Shown in pieces: positions 13,651 to 31,703 of a stretch of DNA of 32,000 nt. Numbering within the stretch: the first letter of the stretch is position 1; the number at the start of each line of letters is the position of its first letter. The stretch is from Desulfocapsa sulfexigens DSM 10523 (GTDB lineage: Bacteria; Desulfobacterota; Desulfobulbia; Desulfobulbales; Desulfocapsaceae): assembly GCF_000341395.1 (NCBI RefSeq), contig NC_020304.1:2160001-2192000 (forward strand), written 5' to 3'. The translations under genes were made by a program, and so were the position numbers. The notes beneath the pieces were generated by a model. The model saw only the letters and a list, made by a program, of their open reading frames with translations, had not been told where the DNA came from and did not search any database.

Positions 13651-13691
13651 AGGCCCAGTGCTGATCATTCAGTACTGGGCCTTTCTTTTTT
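13651..13691 (+). terminator. Rho-independent terminator of the HPF-CSD gene
   Basis: AGGCCCAGTGCTGA-TCAT-TCAGTACTGGGCCT (about 14-bp stem) followed by TTCTTTTTT. Confidence 0.85.
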
Positions 13692-19517: not shown

Positions 19518-20234
19518 ATGATGCAGTCAGTACAAGGGGTTGTGAATCATCAGTTGTATGAGAGCCGGCTCAAGCAGTTTGAGGATGAGGTTGGGGTTTA
19601 TCCGGTGAGTTGTGAGCGACTCGCAGCCGGACGCAGTGACCTGGAATGGCTTGACCAGGTGATAGCCGGAGGAAGCAGGATAGTACAGCTTCGTGATAAG
19701 GATAGTTCGGATAGGGATCTTCTCGCAAAGGCTCGTTATTTCAGAAAAAAAACCAGTGAAGCCGGCGTGTTGTTTTTCTTGAACGATAGGCTTGATATTG
19801 CACTCCTTTCCGATGCCGATGGCATGCATGTCGGGCAGAAAGATTTGCCACCGTCAGAAATCCGAAAACTTGCCCCTGATATTTTAATCGGCTTCTCCTG
19901 TAATACTGAGGAACAGGTCAGGGTTCTGGGTGAGGAGGTGAAACGAGGAACAAGTGCTGTTTCTTATTATAATATCGGGCCTCTTTTTGAAACCGGAACA
20001 AAGGAGGGGTTACATCATTTTTTGGGGGCCGATGGGATTGGTAAATTTTCCCGGCATTGTAGTCTACCCTTCACTGTTATGGGTGGGATAAAACTGGGTC
20101 ACCTTGACGAGGTGCTCCGTGCCGGGGCAAGGCGAGTTGCAGTGGTGACGGCCCTCAGTGGCGCAGATGATATAGCTTTTGAGACAGCGCACTGGCAGCA
20201 GCGTGTTCTGTCCGGACGGAAAGAGAGTTGCTGA
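19518..20234 (+). CDS. thiE: Thiamine-phosphate synthase
   Basis: The ORF opens at 19494. ATG 19518 is preceded by GAAGGGAAA. Motifs include IVQLRDKD, FLNDRLDIAL, DGMHVGQKD and VMGGI. Confidence 0.85.
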   Translation: MMQSVQGVVNHQLYESRLKQFEDEVGVYPVSCERLAAGRSDLEWLDQVIAGGSRIVQLRDKDSSDRDLLAKARYFRKKTSEAGVLFFLNDRLDIALLSDADGMHVGQKDLPPSEIRKLAPDILIGFSCNTEEQVRVLGEEVKRGTSAVSYYNIGPLFETGTKEGLHHFLGADGIGKFSRHCSLPFTVMGGIKLGHLDEVLRAGARRVAVVTALSGADDIAFETAHWQQRVLSGRKESC

Positions 20235-20935
20235 TGTTACATACAAAGAAAGCGAAAGAAGTACTCAGGAGATTGCAAGAAGAAGTTGAAATACTGATTC
20301 CCTACGCCGTTCCAGGTGAAGACCTGGAAGTGGCCCTTGAATTTCTGCGAACTTTTAAGGATGATCAGTTCGCCCTGGGCGTGATAAAAGATTTTTACAG
20401 CATACTTCCAGAGGCACGTGAAGAGGCTCTGGTTAAGATTTCGGTGGTTGAAGAAAAAGAACGGGTTTTTCTGCTGCTACTCAGTACTTCCAGGCATCAT
20501 CACTTTTATTTAATTAACGATGAAGAAGGGGTTTTTCTCGGTGAATGGGAGCAGGGAATACTTGATGAGCATGTTCTTGCTTTTTTTGAGTACCGTAATG
20601 CTGAGTCCTTTAGAGAAGCAAACAGTTCCGTGGCCGCCTGCAGGGAGTACCGTCCTCTTGAGAGGATGAATGAAGAGATTTGTCCTTCCTGTGGAGTAAA
20701 GGCAGGTGGGCTTCATACCCTGGGGTGTCCGGTTGAGGTGTGTCCATGGTGCAGTGGGCAACTGAACTATTGTAATTGCCGTTTTGAGCAGCTGGGTGTG
20801 GAGGAGTTGAACGACGAAAAGGAATTGATGGAACTTGCAGAGAAGCTGGAAAGAAAAGGCAGGGTTCCCTACGCAAAGGAGCAGCGTCCAGCGTTTATAG
20901 CAGAGCCAGAGACAAAGGAGGTTATTTTCAAATAA
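20234..20935 (+). CDS. Hypothetical protein with a C-terminal Cys-rich (zinc-ribbon-like) cluster
   Basis: The ATG overlaps the thiE stop (TGATG). The ORF track lists it from 20228. The cysteine pattern is CPSCG-x8-GC-x4-CPWC-x6-CNC. I recognise no family. Confidence 0.6.
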   Translation: MLHTKKAKEVLRRLQEEVEILIPYAVPGEDLEVALEFLRTFKDDQFALGVIKDFYSILPEAREEALVKISVVEEKERVFLLLLSTSRHHHFYLINDEEGVFLGEWEQGILDEHVLAFFEYRNAESFREANSSVAACREYRPLERMNEEICPSCGVKAGGLHTLGCPVEVCPWCSGQLNYCNCRFEQLGVEELNDEKELMELAEKLERKGRVPYAKEQRPAFIAEPETKEVIFK

Positions 20936-20952
20936 CCTCCTTTGTCTTCTGT
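20915..20952. terminator. Strong hairpin spanning the stop codon of the Cys-rich gene, between convergent genes (putative bidirectional terminator)
   Basis: AAGGAGGTTATT-TTCA-AATAACCTCCTT (12-bp perfect stem) followed by TGTCTTCTGTT. Confidence 0.55.
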
Positions 20953-20980: not shown

Positions 20981-21913
20981 CTATTTCTTACTGTCTATGT
21001 TTTGTAGATAATGAAAAAGGTCAGAATCAGCTGAGAGTATCAGGGAAGTGTTTTTGCCAACAACGTTTGAGTAACTTTGCAGGGTCTTGTAGAAAGAGAA
21101 AAAATCGGGATCCTGGCTGTAAATGTCACCATAGATTTTGGTGGCACTGGCGTCAGCCTTACCTTTGATTTCCGATGACTCTCTATTGGCTTCTGATAGA
21201 ATGACTTTCAGTTCCCGTTCCACCTTACCGAGAATCTCGGCCTTCTTTCCTTCACCTGTAGATCTTCTTTCTGCTGCAATTCGCTTTCGCTCAGAGATCA
21301 TCCGGTCGTATACTTTGAGGCGGACAGACTCGATATAATTGACACGTTTGAACATTACATCGAGTAGTTCAATGCCATATTGCGGCGTTACTTTTCCGGC
21401 GGCTTCAAGAATCTTATTAGTGATACCATCTCTACCAATTTTTGGAGGTCCCTGGCTATCCCTGGCATTTGTCATGGTGTCGAGCGACCAGTCTGAGCTG
21501 CGAATGATTTCAATGAGGTTGTTTTTGTTCACCATGTCACGGACGGTACCATCGATAATGTCGTCCAGCAGTGATTGAGCCCGGGCTTCCGTTTTTACTG
21601 CCTGCATGTACAGGAGGGCGTCGGTGATTCGCCATCGTGCCGTAACATCAAGATAAACATATGTTTTGTCATTGGTTGGGATCTGGTTGGGGTCGCCGTC
21701 CCAGATCTGAACCTTTTTGTCGAAATAATTCACTTCCTGAACAAAAGGCAGTTTGAGGTAAAATCCGGCCTCTGTTTTTGGCTTACCCACCGGGGCTCCG
21801 AACTGGGTAATCATGGCCTGCTGACCTTCTTCAACTATGTAAAATCCATCGTAGACCACGGCTATGCAGAGCAGTACCAGGCCGATAAGAAAAAATTGAG
21901 CTATCTGTTTCAT
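20981..21913 (-). CDS. hflC: FtsH protease modulator HflC (SPFH/band-7)
   Basis: 310 aa with an N-terminal TM anchor and an SPFH domain. It lies directly downstream of hflK with a 10-nt gap. Confidence 0.88.
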   Translation of the reverse strand: MKQIAQFFLIGLVLLCIAVVYDGFYIVEEGQQAMITQFGAPVGKPKTEAGFYLKLPFVQEVNYFDKKVQIWDGDPNQIPTNDKTYVYLDVTARWRITDALLYMQAVKTEARAQSLLDDIIDGTVRDMVNKNNLIEIIRSSDWSLDTMTNARDSQGPPKIGRDGITNKILEAAGKVTPQYGIELLDVMFKRVNYIESVRLKVYDRMISERKRIAAERRSTGEGKKAEILGKVERELKVILSEANRESSEIKGKADASATKIYGDIYSQDPDFFSFYKTLQSYSNVVGKNTSLILSADSDLFHYLQNIDSKK

Positions 21914-24374: not shown

Positions 24375-24447
24375 AATGTAAACCAAGGGTGAAGTGATGC
24401 GGAGCGCAGCTCCATGGACACAATCCATCATAAAAAGGGAGCCAAAA

Positions 24448-25665
24448 ATGTCTTCAATTGCACTGTTTAATACAATTTTCGTAGAAGAGAAGAAGGTTAG
24501 GGAGCAACTTGCAGCTGCAACTGATTTTCGTGTTGTTCGGGATACTGATATAATAAGTGAAGTGTCTCAAAAATACGGCATCGGTGAAGACAAGGTGGAA
24601 CGGGCACTCTATGGCCCACCTTCAGTGTTTAATACATTCACCTTGGAACGCGAACGGATTACTGCTTATCTGAAGGTTGTGATGGCAGGTCATCTGAAAA
24701 CATCCGGAGTTATCTATTGCGGTAATATTGCCCTTCTTGTTCCCTCTGCTGTGACACATGTCCTGCGGGTTGGATTATTTGATAAGATGAGTAACCGTAT
24801 CCAACGTGCAGTGGGGGAAGGTGTAACAGAAAAGAATGCTGTTAAAGTAATAAAGAAAAATGATAGCAGTGCAGCCGGTTGGGCTGATTATCTTTATAAA
24901 AAGGAAATAACAAGTAACTCTCTGTACGATATTGTCGTTCCCATGGGGGAGAATTCTCCCGAGTCAGCGGTAAAACTGATCCTCGAGAATTATAATAAAC
25001 CAGCAGTTCTGGAGCAAGATGCTTCCCGTCAGGCTGTTAATGATATGGCAGTTGGTGCAAAGGTTGAGCTGGCGCTGGTCGAAAAAGGGTATACCACCGA
25101 AGTGAGAAGTACTGGTGGAGAAATTACTCTTTTAATAAATAAGAGTGTTTCTAATTTTCAAAGACTAGTCAATACCCTGACTGAGATAGCAGAAAGTGTT
25201 GAAGGTGTTGCTGCTGTTAAGGTTCTTCCCGGTCAGGACTACCATGTCTCAGTCTATCGGAGTCAGGAATTCACTCTTCCGCCCAAGGTGTTATTGGTTG
25301 ATGATGAACAGGAGTTTGTGCAGACCCTTTCTGATAGATTAAATACCCGTAACTACGGTTCATACCCTGTTTTTGATGGTGAGCAGGCTCTTGAGCTTTT
25401 GGTGAACGAGCTTCCTGATGTGATGGTTCTTGATCTGAAGATGCCAGGGATAGGGGGGGTTGATGTCCTTCGTAAAACCAAAGAATTTAATCCTGACATT
25501 AAGGTTATCATCCTTACCGGTCATGGCTCTGAGGAGGACAGAAAGGTATGTATGAAGCTTGGTGCTTATGCCTATCTGCATAAACCCGTCGATATTGCAC
25601 AGTTGACCGAAATCATTGACGAGGCACATGGGAAGGTTGCGGCGGCAAAAATGGCACACATATGA
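24448..25665 (+). CDS. Response regulator: cytidylate-kinase-like (P-loop-less) domain, BON-like domain, then a receiver domain
   Basis: The ORF opens at 24394. ATG 24448 has SD AAGGGAG. HVLRVGLFDKMSNRIQRAV...KKNDSSAAGWADYLYKK...SLYDIVVPMGENSPESAVKLIL follows the Cytidylate_kin2-type pattern, but the Gly-rich P-loop position reads NTIFVEEKK. AKVELALVEKGY..VRSTGGEITLLINKSV...IAESVEGVAAVKV is BON-like. The receiver has DD, D (VLDLKMPG), T (ILTGH) and K (LHKP). Confidence 0.7.
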   Translation: MSSIALFNTIFVEEKKVREQLAAATDFRVVRDTDIISEVSQKYGIGEDKVERALYGPPSVFNTFTLERERITAYLKVVMAGHLKTSGVIYCGNIALLVPSAVTHVLRVGLFDKMSNRIQRAVGEGVTEKNAVKVIKKNDSSAAGWADYLYKKEITSNSLYDIVVPMGENSPESAVKLILENYNKPAVLEQDASRQAVNDMAVGAKVELALVEKGYTTEVRSTGGEITLLINKSVSNFQRLVNTLTEIAESVEGVAAVKVLPGQDYHVSVYRSQEFTLPPKVLLVDDEQEFVQTLSDRLNTRNYGSYPVFDGEQALELLVNELPDVMVLDLKMPGIGGVDVLRKTKEFNPDIKVIILTGHGSEEDRKVCMKLGAYAYLHKPVDIAQLTEIIDEAHGKVAAAKMAHI

Positions 25666-26864: not shown

Positions 26865-28361
26865 ATGACTGCTGCAGAGTCACAAGCTATGAGCCTTCCT
26901 GAGGCTAAGGAACCGTTCAATGTAAAACGGCTGCTATTTATGTTTCTGGGGATAGGGCTGTTTTGTTTTGTCTACTATTGTCCACCCTGGCCTGACGCTA
27001 TTGATCCAATGGGAGAACATTTCGTCCTGAGTCAGCAGGCAAAGGGTGCCATCGGTGTCTTTTTGCTGGCTGCTACCTGGTGGGTTTTTGAAGTTGTGCC
27101 CATTGGTGTTACCAGTCTCACAATTGGAACGCTTCAGGCTCTTTTTATGATCCGTGATCCCAAGGTTGCCTTCAAGGATTTTATGGATCCATCGGTTCTG
27201 TTTATCTTTGGTTCCATTGTTATTGGTATGGTTTTTACTAAGACAGGTCTGACCAAGCGCATCGCCTATAAAATGCTTTCCATTGTAGGTGAAAAAACCA
27301 GCATGATTTATCTTGGCTGTTTTGTGATGACTGCGGCACTGACCCATGTCATGGCCCACACAGCCGTTGCTGCCACCATGTTCCCCCTGCTCATGGCTAT
27401 CCACGCCCTCTATTCCGATGAAGATGATCCTACAAAATTTGGCAAGGGGCTTTTTATTGGTATGGCCTATGTCGCAGGCGCCGGTAGTATCGTCACCCTG
27501 CTCGGTGCGGCACGTGGTGCTGTGGCTCTTGGATTTTACAAAGATATTATGAGTATTGATGTAAGTTTCTTTGAATTGACCTGGTATATGTTTCCCGTTG
27601 GCTGGCTTATGGTTTTTGCCCTCTGGGGATTTTTTATGCTTTTTTTTAAACCAGAACGGGCTCGTATCCCGGGTCTGAAAGAGAAGGCCGGGAGAATGTA
27701 CAGGGAACTCGGTAGCTGGAGCAGGAAAGAAATTATTACCGCTGTCGTCGTAGCCCTTGCAATCCTGGTTATTGCCTTGAAGAACTTCATACCGGCTCTT
27801 TCGGGATTGGATAAAACCGGCATTCTTCTCTGTTCAACTATAGCATTCTTTCTCTTTAATATTCTTGATATAGATGATCTTGAAGAGATTCCATGGAATA
27901 TCATTCTCCTTTTTGCCGGTGCCATGTCTATCGGGTTCTGTCTGTGGGAGACTGGCGCGGCCAAGTGGATGGCTGTCAACTGGTTGGTTCTTTTTCAGAA
28001 TGCCCCTCCAATCGTCTTTATCCTTGGTATGGCTTTCTTTGTCATGATGATGACGAACTTTATCATGAACGTGGCAGCCATAGCCATCTCCCTGCCTGTT
28101 GCCCTGGTTATTGCGCCGTATCTTGGGGTGGGTGGTGAGGTTATCCTGTTCTCTGCTCTCGTTGTTTCTGGTATGCCTTTTCTGTTACTGGTTGGTGCTG
28201 CTCCCAACGCCATTGCCTATAACTCAAAACAGTTTACCACCGCCGAGTTCTTCCTCTGGGGGCTTCCTGCCAGTGCAGTTCTTATGTTGGTTACCTGGCT
28301 CGCAGTTTCAGTTCTGTGGCCGCTGATGGGAATGGAAGTCTATGTTCCAAAAGTAATGTAA
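26865..28361 (+). CDS. DASS/SLC13-family anion (sulfate/di-tricarboxylate):Na+ symporter
   Basis: 498-aa polytopic protein with SD GAGGA. DASS-like segments are IPWNIILLFAGAMSIG and LVGAAPNAIAYNS. The substrate is not inferable. Confidence 0.8.
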   Translation: MTAAESQAMSLPEAKEPFNVKRLLFMFLGIGLFCFVYYCPPWPDAIDPMGEHFVLSQQAKGAIGVFLLAATWWVFEVVPIGVTSLTIGTLQALFMIRDPKVAFKDFMDPSVLFIFGSIVIGMVFTKTGLTKRIAYKMLSIVGEKTSMIYLGCFVMTAALTHVMAHTAVAATMFPLLMAIHALYSDEDDPTKFGKGLFIGMAYVAGAGSIVTLLGAARGAVALGFYKDIMSIDVSFFELTWYMFPVGWLMVFALWGFFMLFFKPERARIPGLKEKAGRMYRELGSWSRKEIITAVVVALAILVIALKNFIPALSGLDKTGILLCSTIAFFLFNILDIDDLEEIPWNIILLFAGAMSIGFCLWETGAAKWMAVNWLVLFQNAPPIVFILGMAFFVMMMTNFIMNVAAIAISLPVALVIAPYLGVGGEVILFSALVVSGMPFLLLVGAAPNAIAYNSKQFTTAEFFLWGLPASAVLMLVTWLAVSVLWPLMGMEVYVPKVM

Positions 28362-28412
28362 CATCGGAGTCCCTCAAAAAACAAGTAACACCGGAGTCCC
28401 TCAAAAAACAAC
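28359..28412. repeat. 27-bp tandem direct repeat, two copies with 2 mismatches, starting at the DASS stop codon
   Basis: Copy 1 is TAACATCGGAGTCCCTCAAAAAACAAG (28359-28385). Copy 2 is TAACACCGGAGTCCCTCAAAAAACAAC (28386-28412). Confidence 0.95.
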
Positions 28413-28442
28413 CTGCACACTGTGTGTGGCAGTCTGCAGGTT
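28410..28442 (+). promoter_or_regulatory. Hairpin H1 of a paralogous pair (13-bp stem, loop TGTGTGG)
   Basis: AACCTGCACACTG / TGTGTGG / CAGTCTGCAGGTT gives 12 Watson-Crick pairs plus one C-C mismatch. It is enclosed by CCCTCA (28398-28403) and TGAGGG (28450-28455). Confidence 0.8.
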
Positions 28443-28497
28443 AATTTCCTGAGGGGTTGTACCAGAAGAAATGTGATGGTATAGTTTCTTCTGCAGA

Positions 28498-28530
28498 GGC
28501 ATGCGGGCTGTGTGTGGCAGCCTGCATGCC
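28498..28530 (+). promoter_or_regulatory. Hairpin H2 of the pair (13-bp stem, loop TGTGTGG); it embeds a sigma-54-like element at 28515-28530
   Basis: GGCATGCGGGCTG / TGTGTGG / CAGCCTGCATGCC gives 12 Watson-Crick pairs plus one G-U. TGGCAGCCTGCATGCC has GG and GC in the canonical -24/-12 register. Confidence 0.8.
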
Positions 28531-28682
28531 AATCTGGCCGAAAGTTGTTTTTGGCCCTGCATATCATTTGGGAAAGGTGTGCGGAGCCAAAAATAATAAC
28601 CATGGCGGATTATACAGAACTCTACAAAGGCATTATCTGTCAGGATTCATTCAAAGAGTGTGTAAAGGGAGGAAGTGTTTTG

Positions 28683-30113
28683 ATGAAAGTATTTTATAGA
28701 TTGTTGTTACCACTTTTGGTGGTTCCTGGCATTCCGGGACTTGCGATGGCAGCGGGTGCTGCGGGAGGGGATTATATTGATCTCACCACCAGTTGGGTGG
28801 GGTATGCCTCGCTGCTGATTTTTGTAGTAGCATACGGCTTTGTCATGGCTGAAGAGTATACCCATATGCGGAAGTCCAAGCCTGTTCTACTTGCAGCAGG
28901 AATAATTTGGGGAATCATCGGTTGGGTTTATGCCAGTCACGGATTTACCCATGCTGCAGAGATGGCAGTACGACACAATATTCTTGAATACGCCGAACTC
29001 TTTCTCTTTCTCCTGGTGGCTATGACCTATATCAACGCCATGGAGGAGCGGCAGATCTTTGAAGCCCTGCGGGTTAGACTGGTCTGTGCCGGATTTTCTC
29101 TGCGCAAGATATTCTGGCTCACGGGTGTTCTTGCATTCTTTATCTCACCGGTTGCTGATAACCTGACTACCGCCCTCCTTATGTGCGCAGTCGTTATGGC
29201 CATTGGCAAAGATAATGTGAAGTTTGTCAGTCTTGCCTGTATAAATATTGTAGTTGCTGCAAATGCTGGTGGTGCCTTCAGTCCTTTTGGCGATATTACC
29301 ACCCTCATGGTGTGGCAGAAAGGTATCGTCAGCTTCGGAACCTTTTTCAACCTCTTCATACCATCCGTGGTGAACTGGCTGGTTCCCGCTGTAATTATGA
29401 GTTTTGCTGTGCCAAAAATCCAACCCGAGACATGTGAAATCAATGTCAAACTGAAACGTGGCTCTTATGTGGTTATGGGGCTCTTTCTTCTTACCATTTG
29501 CACCGCCGTATGTTTCCATAACTTTCTCCATCTGCCACCTATGATGGGAATGATGACAGGACTTGCATATCTCAAATTGTATGGTTTTTATCTGAAGAAA
29601 ACGCATAAAACCAAGGGGCAGCAATACCGAAGAAGGCAAGGGGAGGAAGATGAACAGATTGGCGATATTGTGGCCTTTGATGTGTTCAGAAATATTGCCC
29701 GGGCCGAGTGGGACACCCTGATGTTTTTCTACGGTGTCATTCTCTGTGTTGGTGGTCTTGGGTTTATCGGTTATCTGGCCGTGGTCTCCAAAATAATGTA
29801 TATCAGTTGGGGAGCGACAAGTGCTAATATCCTGGTCGGTTTTCTTTCCGCCATTGTTGACAACATCCCTGTAATGTTTGCAGTGCTCTCCATGCAACCT
29901 GATATGTCCATGGGACAGTGGTTGCTGGTGACTCTTACTGCTGGAGTCGGTGGTAGTATGCTCTCCATCGGTTCCGCTGCCGGTGTGGCCCTTATGGGAC
30001 AGGCCCGCGGAATGTATACCTTTGGTGGACATTTGAAATGGGCGCCAGCAATCGCCCTTGGCTATTTTGCCAGCATCGCAGTTCATTTCTTTGTCAACAG
30101 TCGCTTTTTCTGA
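28683..30113 (+). CDS. nhaD: NhaD-type Na+/H+ antiporter (ArsB/NhaD superfamily)
   Basis: The ORF opens at 28512. ATG 28683 has a strong SD (AGGGAGGAAG) and gives a signal-peptide-like N-terminus (MKVFYRLLLPLLVVPGIPGLAMA). Motifs are SPVADNLTTALLM, ANAGGAFSPFGDITTLMVW, SAIVDNIPVMFAVL and GVGGSMLSIGSAAGVALMG. Confidence 0.85.
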   Translation: MKVFYRLLLPLLVVPGIPGLAMAAGAAGGDYIDLTTSWVGYASLLIFVVAYGFVMAEEYTHMRKSKPVLLAAGIIWGIIGWVYASHGFTHAAEMAVRHNILEYAELFLFLLVAMTYINAMEERQIFEALRVRLVCAGFSLRKIFWLTGVLAFFISPVADNLTTALLMCAVVMAIGKDNVKFVSLACINIVVAANAGGAFSPFGDITTLMVWQKGIVSFGTFFNLFIPSVVNWLVPAVIMSFAVPKIQPETCEINVKLKRGSYVVMGLFLLTICTAVCFHNFLHLPPMMGMMTGLAYLKLYGFYLKKTHKTKGQQYRRRQGEEDEQIGDIVAFDVFRNIARAEWDTLMFFYGVILCVGGLGFIGYLAVVSKIMYISWGATSANILVGFLSAIVDNIPVMFAVLSMQPDMSMGQWLLVTLTAGVGGSMLSIGSAAGVALMGQARGMYTFGGHLKWAPAIALGYFASIAVHFFVNSRFF

Positions 30114-30290: not shown

Positions 30291-31703
30291 ATGAAGATAG
30301 AGTCAGTACTTCAAAGCGTATCCGTATTTGGTGAGTTGCTAAATGGTATTCCACATGGGATTGCTATTTTGGGAACTGATCTCTGCATCTTGACGATGAA
30401 TCGCTATCTTGAGGCGATGACAGGGTACAGTACCGATGAAGCCAGGGGTGTTTACGGCGATTTTATCCTGCGAACAAACCTTGGTATCAAAAATCAAATA
30501 TGTGCCGAAGTGTTGAAAAGTGGCGAATCAGTTTCAATTGATGGAAATATTATCAATCGTCGTCGTAAGAAAATTCCTGTTCATTTCACTATAAGCCGTC
30601 TTCATGATGGTGAAGGTCAGCCCTCCGGAGTGCTTTTTGTTCTGGAAGACAGCTCGGTGGTAAAGGTTGAAGAATTAAGCCATCGGGAGCAATCCATCCG
30701 CTCTAAAATTCTCGGCCACAGCTCACAGATGGAAAATGTCTTTGAACTGATGACCGTGCTTGCCCGCACCGATGCTTCGGTATTAATTACCGGTGAAACC
30801 GGAACCGGTAAGGATCTGATGGCTGAGGCACTTCACAAGTCGTCGCAACGGGCACGTCAACCTTTTATCAAGGTTAATTGTGGTGCTCTTCCCGAAGCCC
30901 TCCTTGAATCAGAACTTTTTGGCCATGTTAAAGGTGCCTTTACTGGCGCTGTCAATGAAACGGCCGGTATGTTTCGTCTGGCTCATCTGGGGACAATATT
31001 CCTCACGGAAATTGGTGATCTCTCCCTGCCTCTGCAGGTCAAACTGCTCTCTGTACTTGATGATAAGGAGTTTTTTCCCGTTGGGGGGAGTAAAAAAGTT
31101 AAGGTGGACGTCCGAATTATTGCCGCAACCCATAGATCGCTCCGAGAAGAAGTGCAGCAGGGACGTTTTCGCGAAGATCTTTTCTATCGTTTGAATGTTT
31201 TGTGTCTTCATTCTCCGCCACTTAGAGAACGTGATGGCGATATTCGACTTCTTTTAGACCATTTTTTACGTCAGTTCAATGCAAAACTTGGCCGGGAGGT
31301 GACAGATTTCAGCCCCGAGGCCATCGACTTTCTGAACCAGTATAGATACCCAGGAAATGTTCGTGAACTACGCAATATTGCCGAATACTCAGCTAATATC
31401 TGTCAGGGTAGGGTGGTTGAGGTAAAAGACCTGCCAGCCTACCTCTTTCGGCCGGCGGTGAATCCTGAAATGAAAAGCAGTTCAGCTATGAGTCATCCGT
31501 TAGTGCAAAGAGAAGAGGCTGTGGCAGCGCGGGTAACAGTGCCGGCAGGTGGAACAACACCCGGAGGCTGGGTAGATGTGGAAAAAGAAATGATACTGGA
31601 TGCTCTGCGTAGCAGTGGTGGTAATAGATCGAAAGCATCTGAAATTTTGGGTTGGGGACGGACGACACTCTGGAGAAAACTAAAAAAGTATAAGATGGCT
31701 TAG
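30291..31703 (+). CDS. Sigma-54-dependent transcriptional activator (PAS sensor, AAA+ and Fis-type HTH domains)
   Basis: 470 aa. The N-terminus is PAS-like. Walker A is GETGTGKD, and ESELFGH is present. The GAFTGA sigma-54 contact loop is intact, and RFREDLFYRLNV is present. The C-terminal HTH is NRSKASEILGWGRTTLWRKLKKY. There is no receiver domain. Confidence 0.92.
   Translation: MKIESVLQSVSVFGELLNGIPHGIAILGTDLCILTMNRYLEAMTGYSTDEARGVYGDFILRTNLGIKNQICAEVLKSGESVSIDGNIINRRRKKIPVHFTISRLHDGEGQPSGVLFVLEDSSVVKVEELSHREQSIRSKILGHSSQMENVFELMTVLARTDASVLITGETGTGKDLMAEALHKSSQRARQPFIKVNCGALPEALLESELFGHVKGAFTGAVNETAGMFRLAHLGTIFLTEIGDLSLPLQVKLLSVLDDKEFFPVGGSKKVKVDVRIIAATHRSLREEVQQGRFREDLFYRLNVLCLHSPPLRERDGDIRLLLDHFLRQFNAKLGREVTDFSPEAIDFLNQYRYPGNVRELRNIAEYSANICQGRVVEVKDLPAYLFRPAVNPEMKSSSAMSHPLVQREEAVAARVTVPAGGTTPGGWVDVEKEMILDALRSSGGNRSKASEILGWGRTTLWRKLKKYKMA

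Follow-up and report, generated by a model that had tools for sequence, protein, structure and literature searches.

Covarying twin stem-loops in the spacer between a DASS-family transporter gene and nhaD in Desulfocapsa sulfexigens and its relatives

The 321-nt spacer that separates a DASS-family transporter gene from nhaD in Desulfocapsa sulfexigens holds two stem-loops, H1 and H2, which are conserved among relatives, contain covarying base pairs, lie on the sense strand, are specific to this locus and have terminator-like orthologues. I propose that they are a duplicated hairpin of the terminator or decay-barrier type, embedded in a five-helix, sense-strand intercistronic RNA, a reading to which I give slightly less than an even chance. 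The element offers a clean case, with good support, of a structured intercistronic RNA that is restricted to one lineage of under-studied sulfur-cycling bacteria; it is small and testable, and may set the DASS:NhaD expression ratio. The analysis started from a window of 32,000 nt, the whole stretch of DNA under study, and positions are counted from its first nucleotide. Loci and genomes of relatives are designated by L numbers.

Results and Discussion

The spacer and its genes

The window is ordinary chromosome, with genes for MreBC, PBP2, RodA, PolA, citrate synthase and others. The spacer lies in a co-directional series that encodes, in order, a fusion of a cytidylate-kinase-like and a receiver domain, a receiver protein, a CBS protein, the DASS transporter, NhaD and a sigma-54 activator, the last at 30291-31703, just downstream of nhaD. 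NhaD homologues, 76-90% identical, are found in Desulfocapsa, Desulfocapsaceae and Desulfobulbaceae genomes, in which this order of genes recurs; in L001, L002, L006 and other loci, nhaD likewise follows the DASS gene. An earlier reading of the window, made from the sequence only, had placed the best nhaD start at the ATG at 28683 and measured the spacer accordingly. That 321-nt span is used here, but alignment of the orthologues, which show TTG or GTG at 28680 followed by ATT or ATA and no ATG, moves the start itself to what is probably the TTG at 28680. The features of the region are as follows.

26865-28361, forward strand: upstream gene, DASS-family (Na_sulph_symp/CitMHS) transporter of 498 aa, assigned with Pfam.
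28348-28374 and 28375-28401, forward strand: 27-nt tandem duplication spanning the DASS stop codon, copies 81% identical.
28397-28456, forward strand: outer helix around H1, UCCCUCA (28397-28403) with UGAGGGG (28450-28456); -29.1 kcal/mol, z -5.2.
28410-28442, forward strand: H1, AACCTGCACACTG/TGTGTGG/CAGTCTGCAGGTT; 13-position stem with 12 pairs and a C·C mismatch (28418/28434).
28463-28493, forward strand: H3, CAGAAGAAA/UUUCUUCUG, between the twins; -9.5 kcal/mol, z -4.2.
28498-28530, forward strand: H2, GGCATGCGGGCTG/TGTGTGG/CAGCCTGCATGCC; 13-bp stem with 12 Watson-Crick pairs and one G·U (28505/28523).
28545-28596, forward strand: H4, long hairpin with an A-U base, UUUUUGGC...GCCAAAAA.
28597-28682, forward strand: 3' part of the spacer, less structured; it contains the nhaD start, preceded by a Shine-Dalgarno sequence AAGGGAGGAAG (28666-28676), and a semi-conserved block that resembles GGCATTCATTTTAA.
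28680-30113, forward strand: downstream gene, NhaD-type Na+/H+ antiporter, assigned with Pfam (CitMHS); its homologues are named NhaD at the source.

Two stem-loops with a common apex

H1 and H2 share a 13-nt apical core, CTGTGTGTGGCAG, which occurs exactly twice in the window; the next-best matches there carry two mismatches and are all intragenic. The sequence-only reading had described the two look-alike hairpins with this identical core, a third hairpin between them and an enclosure of H1 by CCCTCA/TGAGGG, and all of this stands: the quoted letters match, H3 is present by folding and lies within the 55-nt gap between H1 and H2, and the enclosing arms form the outer helix. H4, absent from its list, brings the array to five helices (outer helix, H1, H3, H2 and H4). 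Less exact was the claim of five compensated differences between the two stems. Both sides have changed at positions 1, 2, 4 and 10 (A-U in H1 to G-C in H2 three times, C-G to A-U once), and at position 8 the A-U of H1 corresponds to a G·U in H2, but the C·C mismatch at position 9 of H1 had been overlooked.

Both hairpins are near-perfect helices with small loops and without internal loops or junctions. Their folding energies are -18.0 kcal/mol for H1 (z -3.2) and -27.7 kcal/mol for H2 (z -5.3), while the whole spacer folds at -121.7 kcal/mol (z -6.0), with none of 100 shuffled sequences equally stable. An attenuator-type pairing of the right arm of H1 with the left arm of H2, 9 bp long in the window by inspection, was also considered and rejected, as it fails in L007, is far weaker than H1 or H2 and follows automatically from their paralogy.

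Comparison with known RNA families and dispersed repeats

Li+ riboswitches (nhaA-I, nhaA-II) and Na+ riboswitches (DUF1646) are found in front of cation/proton antiporter genes, nhaD among them, and before nhaD they are known in tandem (PMC9646797, a paper on the Li+ riboswitch and the only one found in a literature search on nhaD and riboswitches). The spacer occupies such a position and is unusually structured (z -6), and nhaA-I and DUF1646 had been named as candidates from the sequence. However, cmscan of 28300-28750 at E<=10 returned no nhaA-I, nhaA-II or DUF1646 but only chance miRNA and snoRNA matches, those to mir-96, MIR160 and SNORA84 falling on the generic H4 hairpin, and scans of the window and 11 orthologous loci at the Rfam gathering threshold gave only a tRNA elsewhere in the window. 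These known families were rejected on that ground and because the plain helices have no aptamer-type internal loops or junction nucleotides. An undescribed ligand-sensing nhaD leader, possibly tandem and responding for instance to Na+ or Li+, would meet the same difficulty in forming a pocket. Moreover, a search of 600 nt on either side revealed no conserved cis sequence complementary to the loop with which it could kiss or form a pseudoknot, L012, L184 and L183 have tetraloops on an extended stem instead of this loop, and H1, H3 and even H4 are dispensable in the close relatives L002, L179 and L183. Such a sensor is most improbable.

The sequence-only reading had also considered a REP-like element. 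REP and BIME sequences are, like H1 and H2, imperfect palindromes of about 33 nt in intergenic spacers, sometimes in tandem, and a mobile palindrome of the REP or MITE kind that sits in the spacer by chance would fit the duplicated unit, its flanking inverted repeats (CCCTCA/TGAGGG) and the local tandem duplications in the region. REPs, however, come in tens to hundreds of scattered copies, and this hairpin was found in the DASS-nhaD spacer only. No further copy of the core exists in the rest of the window or in the flanks of the relatives' loci, and a covariance model built from the 15 hairpins described below gave significant matches over 691 kb only in orthologous DASS-nhaD spacers. A metagenome-wide scan with the 17-mer GGCTGTGTGTGGCAGCC recovered 91 stretches, of which three had the full stem, all three being DASS-nhaD spacers between genes that are 92-95% identical. 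The outer-helix sequence, sought as a dispersed unit, likewise occurs only at the orthologous site, so that a MITE made of the outer helix and H1 was rejected. REP elements are associated with a tyrosine transposase (RAYT); no transposase is encoded among the window proteins. The mobile-palindrome explanation is already largely refuted and is the least credible of those considered. A false lead is thereby removed, the element being neither a Na+/Li+ riboswitch nor a REP element, and the remaining suggestion of the sequence-only reading, something undescribed, is the one that describes it: a structure under selection that matches no Rfam family.

Selection on the fold and on the sense strand

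Covariation was assessed on 15 hairpins (nine H2 and six H1) from nine genomes. In this set 92% of the cells pair and 10 of the 13 pairs show double changes, a result matched by none of 500 shuffles; in controls in which the partners were slid, pairing falls to 28-43%. On this comparative evidence the fold is under selection. The proposal that covariation within the locus argues for selection is thus upheld as regards pairing, but what it compared were two tandem paralogues, H1 being a duplicate of the older H2.

Two properties bear on the nature of the selected molecule. Non-Watson-Crick cells in H1 and H2 are G·U in 12 cases and A·C in 2 (binomial p=0.006), both A·C being in poorly aligned H1 rows. 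Furthermore, the sense strand folds better than the antisense strand, with -27.7 versus -20.9 kcal/mol for H2 and -24.3 versus -14.1 kcal/mol for H4 in the window, and the sense spacer is the more stable one in 17 of 19 orthologous spacers. The excess of G·U over A·C and the greater stability of the sense folds argue that selection acts on sense-strand RNA; judged from these alignments, the selected molecule is that RNA and not a protein site in duplex DNA.

Neither property is expected of duplex DNA sites, which weakens the possibility that the palindromes are operators or upstream activating sites for a dimeric factor, such as the sigma-54 activator encoded at 30291-31703, or cruciform-forming DNA. 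Some observations would suit an element of this kind: the stem sequence of H2 is conserved beyond what pairing alone would require; a histidine kinase, response regulators and the sigma-54 activator flank the locus; and H2 of the window contains TGGCAGCCTGCATGCC, which fits the GG-N10-GC spacing of sigma-54 promoters. This match is confined to the window, however. A conserved GG-N10-GC (-24/-12) was sought in 19 orthologous spacers and not found, only H2 of the window fitting (score 8 of 11), and the -12 GC is GT in L001, L006, L007 and L009; a sigma-54 promoter or enhancer made of TGGCAG...TGC in H2 and the neighbouring activator was rejected for this lack of conservation. Arms of 13-15 bp around a centre that varies in both length (4-7 nt) and sequence are unlike typical operators, and H4 tolerates a large insertion in L009. 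A DNA-level element is very unlikely, if somewhat less so than a riboswitch, and even when the possibilities of a DNA-level element, a riboswitch and a REP are added together they account for only a minor share of the probability.

H2 in orthologous spacers and its probable duplication

DASS-nhaD spacers upstream of nhaD orthologues were gathered from about 20 relatives and aligned, and 19 orthologous spacers were folded. H2 is recognisable in 13 related genomes, with the consensus GACAUGCAGGCUG-loop-CAGCCUGCAUGUC, and no other block of the spacer comes close to it in conservation, its stem sequence being much more conserved than the flanks. H4 is common to most H2-bearing genomes. H1 was found in six genomes only (the window, L131, L001/L120/L151, L007, L006 and L009), and H1, the outer helix and H3 occur together. 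A stable hairpin lies 3' of the DASS stop in all 19 folded spacers, with a different sequence in L010, L179, L180, L026 and L019; of these, the more distant L010, L180, L026 and L019 match H2 in both stability and place.

The distribution and the sequences of the two hairpins suggest that H2 is the older element and that H1 looks like a tandem duplicate of it. In L006 and L009 the same 5' flank, TGAAGTGACA, precedes both hairpin copies. The core-to-core spacing of twins is 69 or 88 nt. The H1 copy of L009 (2733-2764) has the left arm of H2 and a right arm that resembles that of L006 H1, a hybrid that is evidence of recombination between both repeats; the lower stem of this copy is broken, and its loop reads UGGUGA. 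The lower stem of H1 has turned over between genomes, while its apical 13 nt are invariant in five of the six. The twins illustrate how compensatory evolution can preserve a hairpin after its tandem duplication.

H2 lies 137 nt from the DASS stop in the window, as against 15-25 nt in single-hairpin relatives; in relatives a U-rich stretch often follows it. The twins had been taken for an nhaD leader, and they do lie upstream of nhaD, but the closeness of H2 to the DASS stop and the frequent U-rich tail in relatives argue that the element is a DASS 3' trailer, or an intercistronic element, no less than it is an nhaD leader.

A proposed terminator-type or decay-barrier hairpin

H2 is a stable, G+C-rich hairpin past a stop codon on the transcribed strand (-27.7 kcal/mol), as are intrinsic terminators and leaky attenuators, which lie a few to a few dozen nucleotides past the stop. 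Directly 3' of the stem there are usually two A residues. In L007, L131 and L183 H2 is followed by U8, AUUUGUUCUG and UUGUUCUGUC, respectively, and all three pass a terminator scan. In the window, by contrast, the stems are followed by AAUUUCC (H1) and AAUCUGG (H2), and the scan calls neither of them, nor those of L006, where a U-tract is likewise absent; the view that the twins are not plain terminators, drawn from the absence of a U-tract 3' of either, is thus borne out within the window. Canonical terminators do exist in this genome, for example at 13651-13682, followed by TTCTTTTTT. Since H2 passes the scan in some relatives but lacks a U-tract in the window, it is best seen as a terminator-type hairpin whose U-tract ranges from strong to absent, a description that suits an attenuator, a terminator that leaks or a barrier at the 3' end.

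Intercistronic hairpins can act as barriers to 3' exonucleases and make the levels of the upstream and downstream messages unequal. The position and strand of the twins fit such a stabiliser, the genes being co-directional and the hairpins on the sense strand. Hairpins that stabilise mRNA, as in malE-malF (a REP) and the Rhodobacter puf operon, are likewise stable, devoid of a U-tract and placed between co-directional cistrons; the twins differ from the malE-malF REP in being confined to a single locus. Protection of upstream mRNA from 3' exonucleases by stem-loops and REP hairpins is described by Newbury et al. 1987, as cited in PMC7509114.

A scheme that fits these observations can be outlined, on the assumption that the hairpins are transcribed together with DASS. 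H1 and H2 would form in the sense RNA of the co-directional CBS-DASS-nhaD cluster. H2, an old and very stable hairpin just past the DASS stop, would act as a leaky intrinsic terminator or attenuator, as a barrier to 3'-to-5' exonucleases, or as both, and might thereby set the share of transcripts that continue into nhaD and protect the DASS message. As the U-tract of H2 is eroded in the window, a barrier function or weak attenuation would there be likelier than efficient termination. H1 would have arisen when the H2 unit was duplicated in tandem; compensatory substitutions would since have set it apart, and a helix would have formed around it. H3 and H4 would complete the five-helix intercistronic array.

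Some features do not follow from this scheme. Neither H1 nor H2 has a U-tract in the window. The stem sequence of H2 is conserved far beyond what termination needs, as is the loop: a terminator or barrier requires no particular loop, yet the UGUGUGG loop is identical in 11 of the 12 hairpins of the six genomes that have both H1 and H2.

An invariant loop in genomes with two hairpins

The conservation of the loop is associated with the number of hairpins. The six twin-hairpin genomes all have UGUGUGG, while the seven single-hairpin genomes all have other loops (CUUAUGA, UGUUAGA, AGUU, UUAA, UUGG, a remnant and a diverged form). Of the 12 twin-genome hairpins, 10 have the same 13-nt apical module, made of the loop and three closing pairs; the module is invariant in H1 of five genomes, despite largely different lower stems, and in H2 of five of the six, the exception being L007 H2, where the loop is kept but the closing pairs differ. 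At four-fold degenerate sites of DASS these genomes are only 48-66% identical (mean 53%). The loop is invariant only in twin genomes, between which neutral sites are near saturation, and this hints at a specific binder. Furthermore, in a neighbour-joining analysis of DASS and NhaD the twin genomes were never monophyletic in 300 bootstraps, which suggests that the loop relaxes along with the loss of one copy.

Why the loop should be frozen only where two copies are present is not explained by a plain terminator, and from this pattern the simplest addition would be a trans-acting partner that reads the apical module. The hairpins might thus be twin sites at which two copies of CUG-UGUGUGG-CAG are bound by an RNA or by an RNA-binding protein, perhaps dimeric, that is specific to the lineage. 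By analogy with protein-dependent antitermination and decay control elsewhere, the factor would act on the DASS/nhaD junction by controlling read-through, processing or stability. Both loops have the same orientation on the sense strand, as would suit such a factor. There is no candidate binder, however: no ANTAR, CsrA, Hfq or PRD-type protein was found among the window proteins, and UGUGUGG is not known to match any binding motif. The internal nodes of the trees are weak (27-44% support), so that the perfect association of loop and twin state may rest on few independent events, and the single-hairpin relatives keep the gene cluster without the loop. Binding by a trans-acting factor is on balance unlikely, though it is a serious competitor of the terminator or barrier function. 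Slightly less likely again is its more definite form, in which CUG-UGUGUGG-CAG would be the recognition site of a Desulfocapsaceae-specific RNA-binding regulator that needs two copies, for example a dimer bridging H1 and H2, and that controls DASS/NhaD read-through or processing. If such a regulator exists, it would explain why the loop is frozen in genomes with both hairpins and drifts freely after one is lost. Strong selection on the loop only where there are two copies is the single feature of this element that could exceed the routine, and it points to a specific partner.

In the dual-hexaloop targets of ANTAR proteins and in phage boxB/nut sites, too, one leader carries a pair of hairpins with a common loop, which is conserved while the stems drift. 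ANTAR target RNA consists of two adjacent hairpins whose hexaloops have a conserved A1 and G4. The twins differ in having 7-nt UGUGUGG loops, which are neither A1/G4 hexaloops nor GNRA-like boxB loops, and 13-bp stems that are 55 nt apart with a hairpin between them, and neither an ANTAR nor an N-like protein is encoded nearby. An ANTAR target was rejected on the size of the loops and the distance between the hairpins and because there is no ANTAR domain among the window proteins.

Other parts of the spacer and of the locus

The 27-nt tandem duplication around the DASS stop takes in the final codons of that gene, the stop itself and the left arm of the outer helix, so that this arm, GGAGTCCCTCA, exists in two alternative copies. 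In the spacer alignment it is an insertion relative to L131, L001 and L007 and is specific to the window. Together with the duplication that links H1 and H2, it suggests that the spacer is prone to local tandem duplication. The outer helix is kept as GGTCCCTC...GAGGGGTTGTA in L131, L001 and L120; in L007 its left arm is GTCTCTC (a change of C-G to U·G), with the same GAGGGG opposite.

H3 has orthologues in L131, L001, L007 and L006, in which pairing is preserved through G·U pairs. Its loop (28472-28484) and the equivalents in L001, L131, L006 and L007 contain a start codon followed by a stop, either directly or one to three codons later (ATG TGA, ATG TAA, ATG TTA ATG TAA and GTG TCG TGC TAG), and the purine-rich, Shine-Dalgarno-like left arm CAGGAGAAA precedes the start codon. 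The loop may hold a start-stop mini-ORF, or the arrangement may be a coincidence.

H4 and its orthologues have a U5...A5 base and a GGCAGUGC/GCACUGCC stem and sit between H2 and the nhaD ribosome-binding site. In the H4 alignment (A2), 8 of the 19 predicted pairs show compensatory changes; the insertion in L009 mentioned above is large. H4 is not a terminator on either strand and might act as a 5' stabiliser of a processed nhaD message. A conserved sigma-70 promoter was sought in the DASS-nhaD spacers, and only weak, non-conserved matches were found.

An even more heavily structured spacer is that of L180 (2029-2500), 475 nt long, which contains long, unrelated hairpins and, over the 455 nt folded, reaches -181 kcal/mol, 36 kcal/mol better than its antisense. 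Its first hairpin, CCCCGGTCGGAC...GTCCGACCGGGG followed by TATTTGTG, resembles a canonical terminator.

Three further observations concern the genes. The fusion of a cytidylate-kinase-like domain (PF13189) to a receiver domain, encoded at 24394-25665, heads the cluster in all relatives examined. In the metagenome contig L178 (800-2292) DASS is called as two ORFs, of 83 and 404 aa, and the split may reflect a frameshift or an assembly error. Finally, a perfect 18-nt palindrome, AGACAAAGGAGGTTATTT/AAATAACCTCCTTTGTCT, lies at 20910-20947, between the convergent ORFs 20228-20935 (forward strand) and 20981-21913 (reverse strand); it has the look of a bidirectional terminator, and an AAGGAGG motif lies within it.
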